Shown here: one piece after another, positions 25,542 to 30,878 of the stretch
Numbering within the stretch: the first letter of the stretch is position 1
How the letters are laid out: each line of letters opens with the position of its first letter
DNA from: a virus
Lineage: Duplodnaviria; Heunggongvirae; Uroviricota; Caudoviricetes
IMG/VR virus record: IMGVR_UViG_2534682158_000010
Location: 1 to 30,878 of that record
DNA: 30,878 nt
Reading direction: 5' to 3' (one strand)
Position numbers and translations under genes: made by a program
Notes under the pieces: model-generated
What the model saw: the letters and a program-made list of their open reading frames with translations, nothing else
Told to the model about the DNA's origin: nothing
Database searches by the model: none

Positions 25542-26114
25542 TTACAGCTCAGATTGAGTTTGGCGCTTCTCTACAGGATGATAACGATAAATCGTCGATA
25601 CACCGATATCGTAAATAATTGCCAACTGTTTCCTGCTGTAGCCATTTTCGATCAACCTCGCTATTTGCTCATGTTGTTCTTTTGTCAACTTCGGGCGACG
25701 TCCGCCAATGCGTCCCTGTTCGCGTGCAGCTGCCAGTCCGGCCAGTGTTCTCTCAACAATTAATTCACGTTCCATTTCTGCTAAAGCACCCATGACATGA
25801 AAAAAGAAACGCCCCATGGGTGTTGATGTGTCAATACTGTCTGTCAGACTACGGAAATTAACACCTTTTTCCCGCAACTCCTCTATAAGCGTGATAAGGT
25901 GTTTCATACTTCTGCCAAGCCTATCCAGCTTCCAGACAACCAGCGTATCTCCTTCTGATAACGTTCTGAGCAGCTTTTTCAAGCCTGGTCTGGCTGACTT
26001 TGTTCCGCTTATTTTATCTTCAAAAATCAGTTCACATCCTGCGCAGTTCAGTGCATTTCTTTGTAAATCTGTGTTTTGGTCATTTGTTGACACACGAATG
26101 TAGCCAATTTGCAT
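25542..26114 (-). CDS. Gin/Cin/Min-family serine DNA invertase
   Basis: 190 aa from ATG 26114 (AGAGG SD); catalytic motif IGYIRVSTNDQ, conserved core VVWKLDRLGRSMKHL...SLTDSIDTSTPMGRFFFHVMGALAEMERELIVERT, C-terminal HTH. Confidence 0.93.
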   Translation of the reverse strand: MQIGYIRVSTNDQNTDLQRNALNCAGCELIFEDKISGTKSARPGLKKLLRTLSEGDTLVVWKLDRLGRSMKHLITLIEELREKGVNFRSLTDSIDTSTPMGRFFFHVMGALAEMERELIVERTLAGLAAAREQGRIGGRRPKLTKEQHEQIARLIENGYSRKQLAIIYDIGVSTIYRYHPVEKRQTQSEL

Positions 26115-26168
26115 GAAAAACAACCTCTTTGTTTAGTTAAAAATACATCGTTGGTATAGGTAGGGATT

Positions 26169-26194
26169 AAGACTAAAACGTTGGTTTGGGGGAA
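26169..26194 (+). other. Invertase crossover site s1 (26 bp), at the 5' end of cassette B'
   Basis: AAGACTAAAACG-TT-GGTTTGGGGGAA; fits the Gin-family 12-2-12 architecture. Confidence 0.7.
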
Positions 26195-26653
26195 GGCTCA
26201 GCATTGCCCGTTGGCGTGCCCGTTCCGTGGCCCTTAGAAACACCACCAACGGGCTGGCTGAAATGCAATGGTGCAGCATTTTCTTCTGAAAAGTATCCAA
26301 ATCTGGCAAAGGTTTACCCCACCAATAAATTGCCGGATTTACGCGGTGAGTTTATTCGCGGCTGGGATGATGGGCGGGGGATTGACTCTGGCCGTAATTT
26401 ATTATCTGCACAGAATGATGCAATTCAGAATATTGTTGGTTCTTTCGGGCGTACTCAGCTTTTTAGAGATGTACTTAGTTCAGGGCCATTTAGTCAACAT
26501 GGTCAAGTATTATCTACAGGCCTAAAGGAAACGGAAATTATTGAGGGTTATGGCGCTTATAACTGGACATTCGACGCCTCTCGCTCAGTTCGTACAGCAT
26601 CTGAAACCCGCCCACGCAACATTGCGTTTAATTACATCGTAAGGGCAGCATGA
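26186..26653 (+). CDS. Silent tail-fibre C-terminal cassette B' (tail-collar domain)
   Basis: No genuine start (in-frame with the crossover site); conserved N-terminal GEGSALPVGVPVPWP...LPDLRGEFIRGWDDGRG and C-terminal RPRNIAFNYIVRAA. Confidence 0.75.
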   Translation: MGEGSALPVGVPVPWPLETPPTGWLKCNGAAFSSEKYPNLAKVYPTNKLPDLRGEFIRGWDDGRGIDSGRNLLSAQNDAIQNIVGSFGRTQLFRDVLSSGPFSQHGQVLSTGLKETEIIEGYGAYNWTFDASRSVRTASETRPRNIAFNYIVRAA

Positions 26654-26672
26654 AAACGTTGGTTTGGGGGAA
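26647..26672 (+). other. Invertase crossover site s2
   Basis: AGCATGAAAACG-TT-GGTTTGGGGGAA; spans the stop codon of cassette B'. Confidence 0.7.
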
Positions 26673-27167
26673 GGCTCGGCGCTGCCCGTTGGCGTGCCTG
26701 TTCCATGGCCCTCAGCCACACCGCCAACGGGGTGGCTGAAATGTAACGGAGCAGCATTTTCTTCTGAAAAGTACCCAAATCTGGCAAAGGTTTACCCAAC
26801 GTTAAAATTACCTGATTTACGCGGTGAGTTTATCCGTGGTTGGGATGATTCGAGAGGGATTGATACAGGGCGTTCATTGCTAAGTGGTCAGACTGCAACA
26901 TTTATTCGTACAGCTTTGCAGGATTATTACGGTGTCGATCTGACTACTAATGTCAAAGTAGGTATCGCTTATGCTACTGCTGATTCTGTTATAACTGTTG
27001 GAAACCCTGCTAATCCTAAAGCAGGAGATAATAGCGATTATGTTCCAGCATCAGCAGATAACTCCATAACAGGCACTCAAAGGACGGCAGAGGATAATTT
27101 TACCGGGGCATGGATATCAATGCGCCCCCGCAACGTTGCTTTTAATTACATTGTAAGGGCCACATAA
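26664..27167 (+). CDS. Silent tail-fibre C-terminal cassette E
   Basis: Same conserved ends, unique central region (QTATFIRTALQDYYGVDLTTNVKVGIAYATADS...). Confidence 0.75.
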   Translation: MGEGSALPVGVPVPWPSATPPTGWLKCNGAAFSSEKYPNLAKVYPTLKLPDLRGEFIRGWDDSRGIDTGRSLLSGQTATFIRTALQDYYGVDLTTNVKVGIAYATADSVITVGNPANPKAGDNSDYVPASADNSITGTQRTAEDNFTGAWISMRPRNVAFNYIVRAT

Positions 27168-27186
27168 AAACGTTGGTTTAGGGGAA
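27161..27186 (+). other. Invertase crossover site s3
   Basis: CACATAAAAACG-TT-GGTTTAGGGGAA. Confidence 0.7.
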
Positions 27187-27207
27187 GGCTCGGCGCTGCC
27201 CGTTGGC

Positions 27208-27675
27208 GTGCCTGTTCCATGGCCCTCAGCCACACCTCCAACGGGGTGGCTGAAATGCAATGGTGCAGCATTTTCTTCTGAAAAGTACCCAAATCTGGCA
27301 AAGGTTTACCCAACGTTAAAATTACCTGATTTACGCGGTGAGTTTATCCGTGGTTGGGATGATGGGCGAGGGATTGACTCTGGTCGCTCTATTTTAAGCG
27401 AGCAAGGATATGCAACGGAGGATCATGCTCACGGATTACCGTCAAAATCAACCGTAGCAACTGACCGCTCAATTAATTTCTACTTTGACGAGGCATGGGC
27501 TACTAGTGGTAATACGGGAGTTATCAGATGGGGGAACACAAGCGATGCAGGATTGCCAGCCCCTAATTATGGAACTTTTAAAACATATAAACAGTCCGTA
27601 GCTAATTTAGGTACTGCTGGCTTAGAAACCCGCCCTCGTAATGTTGCATTTAATTATATTGTGAGGGCGGATTAA
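27208..27675 (+). CDS. Silent tail-fibre C-terminal cassette D
   Basis: Open frame actually begins at the crossover site near 27175; unique central region (GYATEDHAHGLPSKSTVATDRSINFYFDEAW...). Confidence 0.75.
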   Translation: MPVPWPSATPPTGWLKCNGAAFSSEKYPNLAKVYPTLKLPDLRGEFIRGWDDGRGIDSGRSILSEQGYATEDHAHGLPSKSTVATDRSINFYFDEAWATSGNTGVIRWGNTSDAGLPAPNYGTFKTYKQSVANLGTAGLETRPRNVAFNYIVRAD

Positions 27676-27680
27676 TTATA

Positions 27681-28292
27681 TCAACTGGCTGTAGAAAGTT
27701 GTTTTTCAGGCCAGTTGAGATCTGGTGCCGTGGTTAAATCCATCGCGTTCAGCTCGTCTATATAATCTAGCACGGAGTTAAGCTGTGTGGTTTCTGCCTG
27801 CGTCAACTTCCGTCCAGCCTGTAATTTCAACTGAATCAGACTAATGGAAGCCATCGCAGTATCAATCAATGACTGACGTTTTGTTTCTGCTGCCTCTACA
27901 GCTGCACTATGTTGAGCCTCAGTATCAACCACCCATTTCTCTCCATCCCATTTGTCGTATGGTGTTAGCGGGGCGATAGTGGTTGTATTTTCCGGATAGT
28001 CACCCAACACCGTGATTTCTTCGGGATTCCCAGTGTCAATGCTATAGACAGTTTCGCCACGATGATCTGGCACATACTCCCATGAACTTAAATCCTCTGA
28101 ACGGAGAATCGCATAACCTGCTTTATGTGAGCCTGGAGCATCCAAACAAGAATTTGCCGGAATACCAACGCCAACAGCAAGATATTCAGTTGATGCAGAA
28201 ATATATTCCCGATTACCACCATCATAGTTATAAACGATAATGTTTCCTGCCTGTATGGCTATAAGTTCGCTATTTAATATCGCATTATCCAT
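27681..28292 (-). CDS. Tail fibre assembly protein (Tfa / U-like chaperone)
   Basis: 203 aa; C-terminal region LIDTAMASISLIQLKLQAGRKLTQAETTQLNSVLDYIDELNAMDLT typical of Tfa proteins; start overlaps cassette C stop (TAATG). Confidence 0.85.
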   Translation of the reverse strand: MDNAILNSELIAIQAGNIIVYNYDGGNREYISASTEYLAVGVGIPANSCLDAPGSHKAGYAILRSEDLSSWEYVPDHRGETVYSIDTGNPEEITVLGDYPENTTTIAPLTPYDKWDGEKWVVDTEAQHSAAVEAAETKRQSLIDTAMASISLIQLKLQAGRKLTQAETTQLNSVLDYIDELNAMDLTTAPDLNWPEKQLSTAS

Positions 28293-28750
28293 TATGCTGC
28301 TCTCACAATATAATTGAAGGCAATGTTACGTGGGCGGGTTTCATTCCCCCCAGATAACTCCGTTCTGTATTGACTGGTAAATTTACCATTAATCGCTCCT
28401 TCTTGGACGGCGTTATCTGTCGACAACAGACTATCCCCCCCTCTGTCATTTGGCACCAATACCGTGTTATCCCACGCGTCCCATGACCGAATATTATGAT
28501 AATGACTTCCTGTTAACCACCCCTGTATGCTTAAGATGCCCCTTCCCGCATCCACACCTCGCCCATCATCCCAACCACGGATAAACTCACCGCGTAAATC
28601 AGGTAATTTTAACGTTGGGTAAACCTTTGCCAGATTTGGGTACTTTTCAGAAGAAAATGCTGCTCCGTTACATTTCAGCCACCCCGTTGGTGGTGTGGCT
28701 GAGGGCCACGGAACAGGCACGCCAACGGGCAGTGCCGAGCCTTCCCCCAA
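28292..28750 (-). CDS. Silent tail-fibre C-terminal cassette C, translationally coupled to Tfa
   Basis: Conserved ends; unique centre (GWLTGSHYHNIRSWDAWDNTVLVPNDRGG...). Confidence 0.75.
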   Translation of the reverse strand: MGEGSALPVGVPVPWPSATPPTGWLKCNGAAFSSEKYPNLAKVYPTLKLPDLRGEFIRGWDDGRGVDAGRGILSIQGWLTGSHYHNIRSWDAWDNTVLVPNDRGGDSLLSTDNAVQEGAINGKFTSQYRTELSGGNETRPRNIAFNYIVRAA

Positions 28751-28767
28751 ACCAACGTTTTCATGCT
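28742..28767 (-). other. Invertase crossover site s4
   Basis: Plus strand reads TTCCCCCAAACC-AA-CGTTTTCATGCT. Confidence 0.7.
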
Positions 28768-29267
28768 GCCCTTACGATGTAATTAAACGCAATGTTGCGT
28801 GGGCGGTTTTCGTTTGCAGTTGGAACAATTTTTGAAGCATCAAGGCCAATCACTTTTGGGTAAACAGCGCCGTCTGTCCTTTCTGTCACCATACTTCTGA
28901 CTAAGGAAAAATAACTATTGTTTGTTGAGGGAGTTAAAGGCACCACTGCCCCCTTAAACGAGCCTACTGATTCCCATATTGAATAATTTTCAGTATTTAC
29001 AGTCTTGAACTCACCATAGATATTACGTATGGCATCACCTTGAGCGGATAATATTGTTCTCCCCGCATCCACACCACGTCCGTCATCCCAGCCGCGAATA
29101 AACTCACCGCGTAAATCCGGTAATTTATTGGTGGGATAAGCCTTTGCCAGTTCTGGGTATTCTTCAGCAGAAAAAGCTGCTCCGTTGCATTTTAGCCAGC
29201 CTGTTGGCGGAGTGGCTGAGGGCCATGGAACAGGTACGCCAACAGGCAATGCTGAGCCTTCCCCCAA
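28761..29267 (-). CDS. Silent tail-fibre C-terminal cassette A' (near-identical copy of A)
   Basis: 168 aa; differs from cassette 29756..30262 at 2 residues. Confidence 0.75.
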   Translation of the reverse strand: MGEGSALPVGVPVPWPSATPPTGWLKCNGAAFSAEEYPELAKAYPTNKLPDLRGEFIRGWDDGRGVDAGRTILSAQGDAIRNIYGEFKTVNTENYSIWESVGSFKGAVVPLTPSTNNSYFSLVRSMVTERTDGAVYPKVIGLDASKIVPTANENRPRNIAFNYIVRAA

Positions 29268-29284
29268 ACCAACGTTTTCATGCT
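29259..29284 (-). other. Invertase crossover site s5
   Basis: TTCCCCCAAACC-AA-CGTTTTCATGCT. Confidence 0.7.
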
Positions 29285-29745
29285 GCCCTTACGATGTAAT
29301 TAAACGCAATGTTATGGGGGCGTGTTTCAGATGCTGTGCGAACTGAGCGAGAGGCGTCGAATGTCCATACAGAAGCACCATATCCTTCAATGATCTCAGT
29401 TGGTTGTAAGCCTACTGATAATATAGAGTCAGTTTGACTAAATGGTCCTGAATTAAGCGCATCTTTAAAAAGCTGAGTACGCCCAAAAGTGCCAACTATA
29501 TTCTGAATAGCGTCAGACTGTGCAGACAGTAGGTTGCGCCCATTATCAACGCCCCGTCCGTCATCCCAGCCGCGAATAAATTCGCCCCGTAAATCCGGTA
29601 ATTTATTGGTGGGGTAGGCCTTTGCCAGATTGGGGTACATTTCAGAAGAAAATGCTGCACCGTTACATTTCAGCCACCCCGTTGGCGGCGTGGCTGAGGG
29701 CCATGGAACGGGCACACCAACGGGCAGTGCAGAGCCTTCCCCCAA
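29278..29745 (-). CDS. Silent tail-fibre C-terminal cassette B
   Basis: 155 aa; divergent paralogue of B' (26186..26653); C-terminal motif carries H in place of R (ETRPHNIAFNYIVRAA). Confidence 0.75.
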   Translation of the reverse strand: MGEGSALPVGVPVPWPSATPPTGWLKCNGAAFSSEMYPNLAKAYPTNKLPDLRGEFIRGWDDGRGVDNGRNLLSAQSDAIQNIVGTFGRTQLFKDALNSGPFSQTDSILSVGLQPTEIIEGYGASVWTFDASRSVRTASETRPHNIAFNYIVRAA

Positions 29746-29762
29746 ACCAACGTTTTCATGCT
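29737..29762 (-). other. Invertase crossover site s6
   Basis: TTCCCCCAAACC-AA-CGTTTTCATGCT. Confidence 0.7.
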
Positions 29763-30262
29763 GCCCTTACGATGTAATTAAACGCAATGTTGCGTGGGCG
29801 GTTTTCGTTTGCAGTTGGAACAATTTTTGAAGCATCAAGGCCAATCACTTTTGGGTAAACAGCGCCGTCTGTCCTTTCTGTCACCATACTTCTGACTAAG
29901 GAAAAATAACTATTGTTTGTTGAGGGATTTAAAGGCACCACTGCCCCCTTAAACGAGCCTACTGATTCCCATATTGAATAATTTTCAGTATTTACAGTCT
30001 TGAACTCACCATAGATATTACGTATGGCATCACCTTGAGCGGATAATATTGTTCTCCCCGCATCCACACCACGTCCGTCATCCCAGCCGCGAATAAACTC
30101 ACCGCGTAAATCCGGTAATTTATCGGTGGGATAAGCCTTTGCCAGTTCTGGGTATTCTTCAGCAGAAAAAGCTGCTCCGTTGCATTTTAGCCAGCCTGTT
30201 GGCGGAGTGGCTGAGGGCCACGGAACAGGTACGCCAACAGGCAATGCTGAGCCTTCCCCCAA
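29756..30262 (-). CDS. Silent tail-fibre C-terminal cassette A
   Basis: 168 aa; conserved ends, unique centre (GDAIRNIYGEFKTVNTENYSIWESVGSFKG...). Confidence 0.75.
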   Translation of the reverse strand: MGEGSALPVGVPVPWPSATPPTGWLKCNGAAFSAEEYPELAKAYPTDKLPDLRGEFIRGWDDGRGVDAGRTILSAQGDAIRNIYGEFKTVNTENYSIWESVGSFKGAVVPLNPSTNNSYFSLVRSMVTERTDGAVYPKVIGLDASKIVPTANENRPRNIAFNYIVRAA

Positions 30263-30279
30263 ACCAACGTTTTCATGCT
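30254..30279 (-). other. Invertase crossover site s7
   Basis: TTCCCCCAAACC-AA-CGTTTTCATGCT. Confidence 0.7.
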
Positions 30280-30878
30280 GCCCTTACGATGTAATTAAAT
30301 GCGATATTTCGCGGCCTGACAGCAACAAAATTTATACCATCACCTACAGAGTTACTGGTGAAATTAAATCGTGAAAATCCTGGCTGATTTCCGACGATGC
30401 CATCATGAAAATTAATTGCGTGCCCCGCACCATCACCTATATTTCCGGCACGCTGAGAAAAGTTTGTAGCCTCTTGGCTGCTTAATAATGCTCGCCCATT
30501 GTCCACACCTCGTCCATCATCCCAACCTCGAATAAATTCGCCCCGTAGATCCGGCAATTTATTGGTGGGGTAAACCTTTGCCAGATTTGGGTACTTTTCA
30601 GAAGAAAATGCTGCTCCGTTACATTTCAGCCACCCCGTTGGCGGTGTGGCTGAGGGCCACGGAACAGGCACACCAACGGGCAGCGCCGAGCCTTCTCCTA
30701 AACCAAGGTAATCAAGAACGCTCTGAATACTGGTCTTACCAAGAATGGCGCGTCCAACACTTGTCAATGCAGTTAACGCGGCACGATCAACACCTGTGAA
30801 ATAAGGGAGTTTATCTGCTGCTGTAGCTAGTGCCGCTAGGGCAGTGAGCGTAGCGTCTGCCGCTTGCTTTCCATTAGC
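30273..30878 (-). CDS. Tail fibre protein S, 3' portion: constant part fused to the currently expressed cassette F (5' end beyond the window)
   Basis: Frame is open from the window edge (ANGKQAADATLTALAALATAADKLPYFTGVDRAALTALTSVGRAILGKTSIQSVLDYLGLGEGSALP...) through cassette F; the TTG at 30767 is not a real start. Confidence 0.85.
   Translation of the reverse strand, partial: ANGKQAADATLTALAALATAADKLPYFTGVDRAALTALTSVGRAILGKTSIQSVLDYLGLGEGSALPVGVPVPWPSATPPTGWLKCNGAAFSSEKYPNLAKVYPTNKLPDLRGEFIRGWDDGRGVDNGRALLSSQEATNFSQRAGNIGDGAGHAINFHDGIVGNQPGFSRFNFTSNSVGDGINFVAVRPRNIAFNYIVRAA
30693..30718 (-). other. Invertase crossover site s8 at the junction of the S constant part and cassette F
   Basis: TTCTCCTAAACC-AA-GGTAATCAAGAA; the best-palindromic of the eight sites. 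Confidence 0.7.

Follow-up and report, generated by a model that had tools for sequence, protein, structure and literature searches.

The Min multiple DNA-inversion system was described for the E. coli 15T- plasmid p15B (Sandmeier, Iida, and Arber 1990-1992), as represented in later papers (PMC5903667, PMC11850598), and an invertase with 98.5% identity to Min was found on a different P1-like plasmid (PMC6906374). The Cin/C-segment of P1 and the Gin/G-segment of Mu have two sites and two alternative tail-fibre tips, with one assembly gene per tip (S-U/S'-U'). The shufflon of R64/IncI plasmids (Rci, pilV) selects one C-terminus of a receptor-recognizing protein by the inversion of clustered cassettes; its cassette content varies among plasmids and the region is hard to assemble (PMC5430464).

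In this study, we analyzed a stretch of 30,878 nucleotides from a virus of the Caudoviricetes (the window), which, judged from its sequence, belongs to a P1-like phage-plasmid. Hundreds of ~95-kb E. coli plasmids with annotated darA, holins, and associated genes match 24 kb of its backbone, at 96-100% coverage and 98-99% identity. The ORFs of 343, 2255, 995, 121, and 639 aa beside the array of tail-fibre cassettes described below follow the order of the P1 backbone; the P1 names cre, darB, the ddrB/ddrA/darA operon, and the lysis genes were assigned from ORF lengths and presumably apply. The array occupies the position of the P1 C-segment, between the lysis/dar genes and the S gene. The nearest backbone relative, pUTME-7-2 (99.0% over 24 kb), carries a classical P1 C segment without a cassette array and is uninformative on the repeat that is the subject of this work.

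A multiple-inversion array with eight cassettes

Alongside a single serine invertase and a single assembly gene, the array has eight cassettes for the tail-fibre C-terminus and eight crossover sites of 26 bp. As assembled it is regular and complete, with a single constant part and no frame or site disrupted. We compared it with 20 relatives, chosen as best BLAST matches, whose array loci are labelled L001, L002, and so on; cassette types are numbered from a 97% clustering on 22 loci (an earlier clustering of 13 arrays numbered the types differently). The features are:

25542..26123, minus strand: serine DNA invertase of the Din family (Gin/Cin/Hin/Pin/Min type; Pfam Resolvase, 2.2e-51; HTH_7, 3.5e-15)
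26169..26194, minus strand: crossover site 1 (TTCCCCCAAACCAACGTTTTAGTCTT), array end at the invertase gene
26183..26653, plus strand: silent cassette of type 15, coding for a C-terminal tail-fibre tip (Collar domain), same allele as in L013 and L020
26647..26672, minus strand: crossover site 2, exact match
26661..27167, plus strand: silent cassette type 0, chimeric allele
27161..27186, minus strand: crossover site 3, left boundary of the central segment
27175..27675, plus strand: cassette type 3, in the central segment, same allele as in L002, L015, and L021
27681..28292, minus strand: tail-fibre assembly (chaperone) gene, sole copy (Pfam Caudo_TAP, 2.7e-30)
28292..28753, minus strand: cassette D (type 1), in the central segment, same allele as in L013
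28742..28767, plus strand: crossover site 4, lower-coordinate boundary of module A
28761..29270, minus strand: cassette A (type 6, haplotype AAC), 510/510 to cassettes in L001 and L002
29259..29284, plus strand: crossover site 5
29278..29748, minus strand: cassette B (type 11), between the repeats, same allele as in L001 and L002
29737..29762, plus strand: crossover site 6
29756..30265, minus strand: cassette A' (type 6, haplotype GGA), 510/510 to L008, L013, L014, and L020
30254..30279, plus strand: crossover site 7
30273..30704, minus strand: cassette E (type 2), in frame with the constant part at site 8, allele identical to L020
30693..30718, plus strand: crossover site 8 (TTCTCCTAAACCAAGGTAATCAAGAA), junction with the constant tail-fibre gene
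30705..30878, minus strand: 3' end of the constant tail-fibre part (Sc), continuing past the window end (open frame 30273-30878)

The invertase gene adjoins the outermost crossover site, and its copy in the relatives is annotated as 'recombinase family protein' (WP_001165547.1). With ~190 aa, a resolvase catalytic domain at its N-terminus, and an HTH at its C-terminus, the protein is a serine recombinase of typical Din-family build and a close relative of Gin and Cin, sharing 72.7% identity with phage Mu Gin over 97% of the Gin length (tblastn). A Fis-dependent recombinational enhancer within the 5' portion of the recombinase gene is a feature of Din-family systems. The crossover sites lie in both orientations, three in one and five in the other, and include five exact copies versus 0 expected in shuffles. 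All match the half-site pattern of the Din family, TTCNNNNAAACC-NN-GGTTT-like.

The sites are located inside the tail-fibre reading frame, so that alternative 3' cassettes can fuse to the single constant 5' part. Each cassette frame opens with GLGEGSALPVG in the left half-site and closes with a stop codon in the right half-site of the site that follows; the assembly gene sits between two convergent cassette sets. The Sc part and the tail-fibre genes of the relatives share 98.8-99.4% identity, and the in-frame fusion of Sc with cassette E predicts that E is the tip currently expressed. The serine invertase would recombine the 26-bp sites within the coding sequence and could thereby join any silent cassette to the constant 5' part; swapping a C-terminal cassette of ~155-170 aa would alter the receptor-binding tip of the tail fibre. 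Among relatives with identical alleles, the central segment is found in either orientation relative to the tail-fibre gene and the order of the modules is permuted, suggesting that inversion operates in this array family.

By its predicted organization, the array is of the multiple-inversion type of p15B Min. Both are on a P1-related plasmid prophage with a Din-family serine invertase gene at one end, both have several 26-bp sites in both orientations within tail-fibre coding sequence, and in both, the invertible segments overlap and link one constant 5' part to alternative 3' cassettes. This likeness to p15B Min (X62121) concerns the arrangement as described for that system. The p15B system reportedly has six crossover sites, whereas the window has eight sites and eight cassettes, among them a directly oriented pair of alleles of the same cassette type. 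P1 and Mu share with the window the recombinase family and the switching of the tail-fibre tip and host range, but the window encodes eight tips with only one assembly gene, which flips at every inversion. The R64/IncI shufflon resembles the window in selecting one C-terminus by clustered-cassette inversion and differs in that Rci is a tyrosine recombinase acting at sfx sites, the target is a pilus adhesin, and the sequence is unrelated.

Extent and identity of the two type-6 cassettes

The first-pass annotation had reported that 28741-29300 and 29736-30295 differ at three positions only. Alignment with MAFFT bore this out (560 columns, 0 gaps, 3 substitutions) and placed the differences at 28933/29928 (G/T), 29129/30124 (T/C), and 29226/30221 (T/C). 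Ungapped comparison at an offset of 995 extended the block to 568 nt, still with 3 mismatches:

28737..29304, no strand: repeat copy 1 (module A and both flanking crossover sites)
29732..30299, no strand: repeat copy 2

The two copies are thus 99.5% identical, lie in direct orientation on the same strand with a spacing of 995 bp, and contain uninterrupted runs of identity of 196, 195, 96, and 78 bp. Each consists of exactly one complete cassette module between two crossover sites. Rightward of the block, identity is lost immediately; leftward, ~90% identity persists for ~200 nt, which corresponds to the conserved N-terminal coding portion of the adjoining cassette. The length of the match rules out chance as its source.

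A and A' were also said to be far closer to each other than any other pair of cassettes, and indeed they share 99.4% identity, while every other pair in the window shares 64-84%. Two of the three substitutions change the protein from A to A' (N48D and T113N) and the third is synonymous. At cassette nucleotides 45/142/338, A has the haplotype AAC and A' has GGA.

Origin of the repeat pair

We next compared the modules with their counterparts outside the window. Cassette A has 0/510 differences to L001, in which it is present in three copies, and to L002; cassette A' has 0/510 differences to L008, L013, L014, and L020. The other modules divide in the same way. B and type 3 have 0 differences to L002, and D, type 15, E, and a 1719-bp invertase flank have 0 differences to L013 and/or L020. 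Hence, with allele sets defined from the 20 relatives only, the remaining modules fall into one set that is p886Rt_IncY-like and another that is p12579_1- and CNREC_004-43-like. No difference from L002 is present in the central segment across 27163-27785, and none from L013 across 27693-28761; the SNP pattern places the crossover between them at 27693-27785, inside the assembly gene. The type-0 cassette is itself a mosaic, matching L002-like alleles at nt 1-410 and L013/L020/L006-like alleles at nt 395-507. An intermediate type-6 haplotype, GAC, which equals a 5'-A'/3'-A recombinant, occurs in L009, L017, L018, and L019, and chromosomal prophage versions of the type-6 cassette are only ~95% identical.

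Arrays of the same kind are present in all 20 relatives and range from 3 to 17 cassettes. Same-type duplicates occur in 4/20, including perfectly identical ones in L001, L011, and L018, and X-Y-X patterns are present in the window, L018, and L001. The A-B-A' order, whose conservation in P1-like genomes the first-pass annotation had raised as a question, is not conserved: no record in the phage, plasmid, and complete E. coli genome collections contains it. The best match to this stretch (97.7% identity, 89% cover) has a single A-B pair and is L002. The A and A' alleles were not found together in any of the 23 other plasmid records with a type-6 cassette; the only one of these with several type-6 copies is L001, with three identical copies of A. 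An exact 47-nt pattern from the variable part of type 6 gave 0 matches in IMG/VR viral contigs.

Because each copy matches outside cassettes at 510/510 positions and the array is a mosaic of the same two lineages, we read A and A' as alleles from two plasmids, probably united in the array by recombination with a related plasmid. The array as a whole would then be an inter-lineage recombinant holding two already-circulating alleles of one type-6 cassette, which we regard as likely. One parent, p886Rt_IncY-like, would have contributed A, B, and the type-3 cassette, and the other, p12579_1/CNREC_004-43-like, would have contributed A', D, E, type 15, and the invertase flank. The array anatomy, allele identities, and mosaic breakpoints are observed directly; from them we infer the co-residence of the parents and the order of events. 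The probable route is homologous exchange inside a single cell that held two related elements with arrays unlike in module content and order. One exchange point falls in the assembly gene (27693-27785), and the recombinant would have retained one type-6 cassette from each parent. Subsequent shuffling by the invertase would have interleaved the modules of both parents; by our own derivation, two model inversions from the present order put every L002-like module in one contiguous patch. The L002-like part of the type-0 cassette lies opposite to where one simple patch would put it, so more than one exchange is needed. Neither parent nor an intermediate is among the sequenced relatives, none of which has the A-B-A' order or both alleles.

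The first-pass annotation had instead proposed a recent duplication or gene conversion. Duplication of A in place, whether by unequal sister crossing-over or by slippage during replication, with three point mutations arising afterwards, would produce the direct orientation, the 99.5% identity, and the boundaries within repeated sequence, and it happens in this array family, as the identical duplicates in L001, L011, and L018 illustrate. For A and A' it is highly improbable, as the three differences are existing alleles rather than new mutations, and the likelihood that three random substitutions would rebuild an existing haplotype is negligible. In addition, the adjoining modules are split by the same two lineages, and a tandem event predicts A-B-A-B instead of the observed D-A-B-A'-E; tandem duplication was ruled out by the flanking cassettes D and E, which are of unrelated types. 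Gene conversion is compatible with the data if the donor was another element, while the outside allele identities speak against a sister copy as donor. Recency likewise applies to the arrangement, which looks recent because every module matches an outside allele with zero differences, and not to a duplication. Invertase-mediated duplication was set aside; directly oriented sites are poor partners for Din invertases. The ends of the repeats fall at crossover sites and cannot separate site-specific from homologous exchange, since flanks of ~28 bp are identical at all right-hand sites.

The duplication could also be old, with A and A' diverging within an ancestral array that the window preserves and other lineages losing one copy. 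The content of the arrays is highly fluid, recombination between A and A' makes loss of a copy easy, and the GAC haplotype is what exchange between the two would leave. We nevertheless consider this history unlikely. It does not explain why the B and type-3 alleles are linked to A in L002, why the alleles of D, type 15, E, and the flank are linked to A' in L013/L020, or why the assembly gene contains a clean L002/L013 crossover, and 0/23 other plasmid records with type 6 have both alleles, the three copies in L001 all being A. Another explanation is that inversion isomers or two co-resident plasmids were merged during assembly into an order absent from any molecule. Mis-assembly of multiple-inversion regions from long reads is documented (PMC5430464), and the public records include suspicious cases, namely the 17-cassette array L001 with many 100% identical copies and 'circular plasmids' of 1.9-2.4 kb composed solely of array pieces. 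A simple artefact is unlikely, because collapse or expansion of a single template predicts identical copies or random, mostly indel errors, whereas the three substitutions all match known alleles, so two physical type-6 templates must have been present in the sample. The chromosomal prophage cassettes, at ~95% identity, are unfit as the second template, and the array is structurally regular; we therefore judge a merged order quite improbable, although a chimera of two co-resident plasmids keeps a small probability. Overall, recombination between two plasmid lineages remains our preferred origin of the A/A' pair.

Recombination potential of the array

The first-pass annotation had described the copies as direct repeats around cassette B that delimit a unit of roughly 1 kb, and this unit measures 995 bp. 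Segmental duplications in bacteria serve as substrates for RecA-dependent deletion or amplification. The A/A' pair resembles them in its length, identity, perfect runs of ~195 bp, and spacing, and differs in that it does not appear to have been formed by duplication in place. With this much uninterrupted identity, A and A' should be good substrates for homologous recombination, and RecA-dependent deletion of the 995-bp unit is plausible. Such an event would remove B and one type-6 copy, or alternatively amplify the unit.

The near-identical repeats are unremarkable for this known kind of system, and they reveal no new mechanism. Tentatively, P1-like arrays could grow and become more diverse chiefly by capturing cassettes of other elements through homologous recombination between arrays, with the repeats adding a RecA-driven layer that is independent of the invertase. 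If so, hybrids with doubled allelic cassettes (X-Y-X) would arise when arrays in unlike inversion states recombine, and the RecA layer would alter copy number and repertoire on top of programmed inversion. The substitutions N48D and T113N might make A and A' functionally distinct receptor-binding variants that are maintained by selection.

In practical terms, near-identical cassettes in an inverting array are both real recombination substrates and a classic assembly trap. P1-like plasmids often bear resistance genes, and the array shows how a host-range repertoire is assembled in this clinically common phage-plasmid family, in which whole receptor-binding cassettes between crossover sites appear to pass among lineages.

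Anatomy of the array and its repeated module

Alignment of 28741-29300 with 29736-30295 gave 560 gap-free columns with three mismatches, the same number as in the first-pass annotation, whose description of direct repeats also holds. Comparison at a fixed offset of 995 bp extended the near-identical block to 568 nt (28737-29304 versus 29732-30299), with perfect runs of 196, 195, 96 and 78 bp; to the left, ~90% identity continues over ~200 nt more, and to the right it is lost sharply. Each repeat unit is a single module, a type-6 cassette (A or A′) with both bounding crossover sites.

Features of the array and the repeat pair
25542-26123, minus strand: serine recombinase (Resolvase and HTH_7 domains; 72.7% identity to Mu Gin)
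26169-26194, 26647-26672 and 27161-27186: crossover sites, first orientation (n = 3)
27681-28292, minus strand: tail-fibre assembly protein, 203 aa (Caudo_TAP)
28742-28767, 29259-29284, 29737-29762, 30254-30279 and 30693-30718: crossover sites, other orientation (n = 5)
28761-29270: cassette A
29756-30265: cassette A′
28933/29928, 29129/30124 and 29226/30221: positions differing between A and A′ (alignment)

The eight 26-bp sites, three in one orientation and five in the opposite one, are of the Gin/Cin/Hin type. At each site a cassette reading frame starts with GLGEGSALPVG; it encodes 143-169 aa with a phage tail Collar domain, and its stop codon lies in the right half of the following site. 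Cassette A resembles the collar region of T4 gp37/gp12. The rightmost outer site fuses the type-2 cassette E (30273-30704) in frame with the constant tail-fibre gene, which continues beyond the window end, and hence E is the expressed tip and the remaining seven cassettes are silent. The 203-aa ORF is a tail-fibre assembly protein with a Caudo_TAP match, not an invertase. It is the only assembly gene alongside the eight alternative tips and, placed between two convergent cassette sets, flips with every inversion. Its neighbours are almost constant: type 3 or 10 flanks one side and type 1 or 13 the other. In several relatives (loci L009, L012, L013 and L020) it runs antisense to the tail-fibre gene.

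A and A′ are 99.4% identical versus 64-84% for every other cassette pair in the window, which bears out the earlier remark that they are by far the closest; type 15 and the type-11 cassette B come second (83.9%). The repeat pair is real and lies within a known kind of system, a multiple-inversion array such as has been described for plasmid p15B under the name Min.

Probable allelic origin of the two type-6 cassettes

Arrays were cut at the crossover sites, cassettes were clustered at 97% identity and alleles were compared. On the coding strand, A and A′ differ by a synonymous change at nt 45 and by two amino acid replacements, N48D at nt 142 and T113N at nt 338. A matches three cassette copies in NZ_CP135665.1 (L001) and also a cassette type-6 allele of NZ_CP080083.1 (L002) at 510/510 nt, and A′ is identical over 510/510 nt to cassettes in NZ_CP148287.1 (L008), NC_017653.1 (L013), NZ_CP065205.1 (L014) and the CNREC_004-43 plasmid (L020). 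Four further plasmids carry a third haplotype (GAC), and chromosomal versions of the cassette are only ~95% identical.

The matching modules split into the same two allele sets.

Allele sets in the window array
L002-like, from a p886Rt_IncY-like lineage (identical to L002): B and the type-3 cassette
L013/L020-like (identical to L013 and/or L020): the type-1 cassette D, type 15, E, and 1719 bp with the invertase and holin genes

At least two lineages thus make up the mosaic array, and each appears to have given it its own type-6 allele. Within the central segment, which spans 27161-28767, 27163-27785 is identical to L002 and 27693-28761 to L013, placing a crossover in the 3′ part of the assembly gene. 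The type-0 cassette (26661-27167) is chimeric, with an allele switch near nt 395-410. The type-6 cassette of L009 (9589-10098) has a divergent first ~200 nt and is A-like in the rest; together, these two mosaics indicate that homologous exchange also reaches into single cassettes, through the stretches encoding their conserved N and C termini.

Two model inversions from the present order would give invertase, 15, 0, B, A, 3, assembly gene, D, A′, E and constant part, with all L002-like modules contiguous in one patch, although this history is not unique. The probable origin is homologous recombination between two related elements co-resident in one cell, whose arrays would have differed in module content and order. 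Each module still has an outside counterpart from which it differs at no position, and so the hybrid appears to be young.

The pair had been put down to a recent duplication or gene conversion. Because both haplotypes are present in outside plasmids, the three differences represent standing allelic variation, neither post-duplication mutations nor sequencing noise, and we replace the duplication with two circulating alleles, probably joined through inter-lineage recombination. Mis-assembly is a documented hazard of inverting arrays (PMC5430464). Collapse or expansion of one template cannot yield two copies each matching a different known allele, and the only artefact reading left, a possible one, is a chimera assembled from two P1-like plasmids resident together.

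Related arrays

Over its first 24 kb the window matches hundreds of non-mobilisable E. coli plasmids of ~95 kb that carry P1 genes, at 98-99% identity, and ORF sizes fit P1 cre, darB, ddrB, ddrA and darA. Arrays of the same design occupy the same location in 20 relatives. Among these, cassette modules are permuted and the central segment is found facing either way with respect to the tail-fibre gene, the pattern expected from a working multiple-inversion system.

Same-type duplicates occur in 4 of these 20 relatives (L001, L010, L011 and L018), a sample biased by its selection from best BLAST hits, and the direct X-Y-X pattern recurs in L018 and L001. Among 23 other plasmid records in which the type-6 variable part occurs, L001 alone carries it more than once. 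L001 (82-91 kb) holds 17 cassettes, many copies being 100% identical: four of type 12, three of type 6 and two each of types 7 and 11. Either this array has undergone striking expansion, or its inversion isomers were mis-assembled from long reads.

Also suspect among public records are tiny cassette-only "plasmids". NZ_CP148414.1 (L021, 2415 bp) and NZ_CP148330.1 (1878 bp), deposited as circular plasmids, contain array pieces only (assembly gene and cassettes) and could be remnants of the assembly or circles that recombination at directly oriented sites has excised; the L021 strain also has a 96-kb P1-like plasmid, NZ_CP148411.1.

Structural damage is common in these arrays: L011 (NZ_LR882977.1) has, ~3.8 kb away, a second invertase gene copy with a partial array, the assembly gene of L017 is interrupted by an IS4-like element (ISVsa5), and L019 has an IS21-like element (ISEc10) within the array. 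In the closest backbone relative, L022 (NZ_CP169031.1, 26-32 kb; 99.0% over 24 kb), the multi-cassette array of window 25.5-30.9 kb is replaced by a C segment of the classical P1 type, adjoined by an IS66-family element. This segment has two tips, each tip set against one of two assembly genes in total, and its cin-like recombinase is a different one. The whole host-range module has been swapped between otherwise near-identical plasmids.

Consequences for recombination

The repeats are direct and 995 bp apart, with a length and identity sufficient for efficient homologous recombination; the earlier proposal that they are recombination substrates stands as a sequence-based prediction. RecA-dependent crossing-over would remove B and one type-6 copy, leaving an A′/A chimera, or would alternatively amplify the 995-bp unit. 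Din invertases strongly prefer inverted sites, and the invertase should therefore rarely act on the directly repeated sites bounding A and A′. The array also contains a 674-nt inverted repeat of 84% identity (26175-26848 versus 29083-29756), formed by type 15 and the start of type 0 versus B and the start of A. Such long inverted homology could also support inversion without the invertase.
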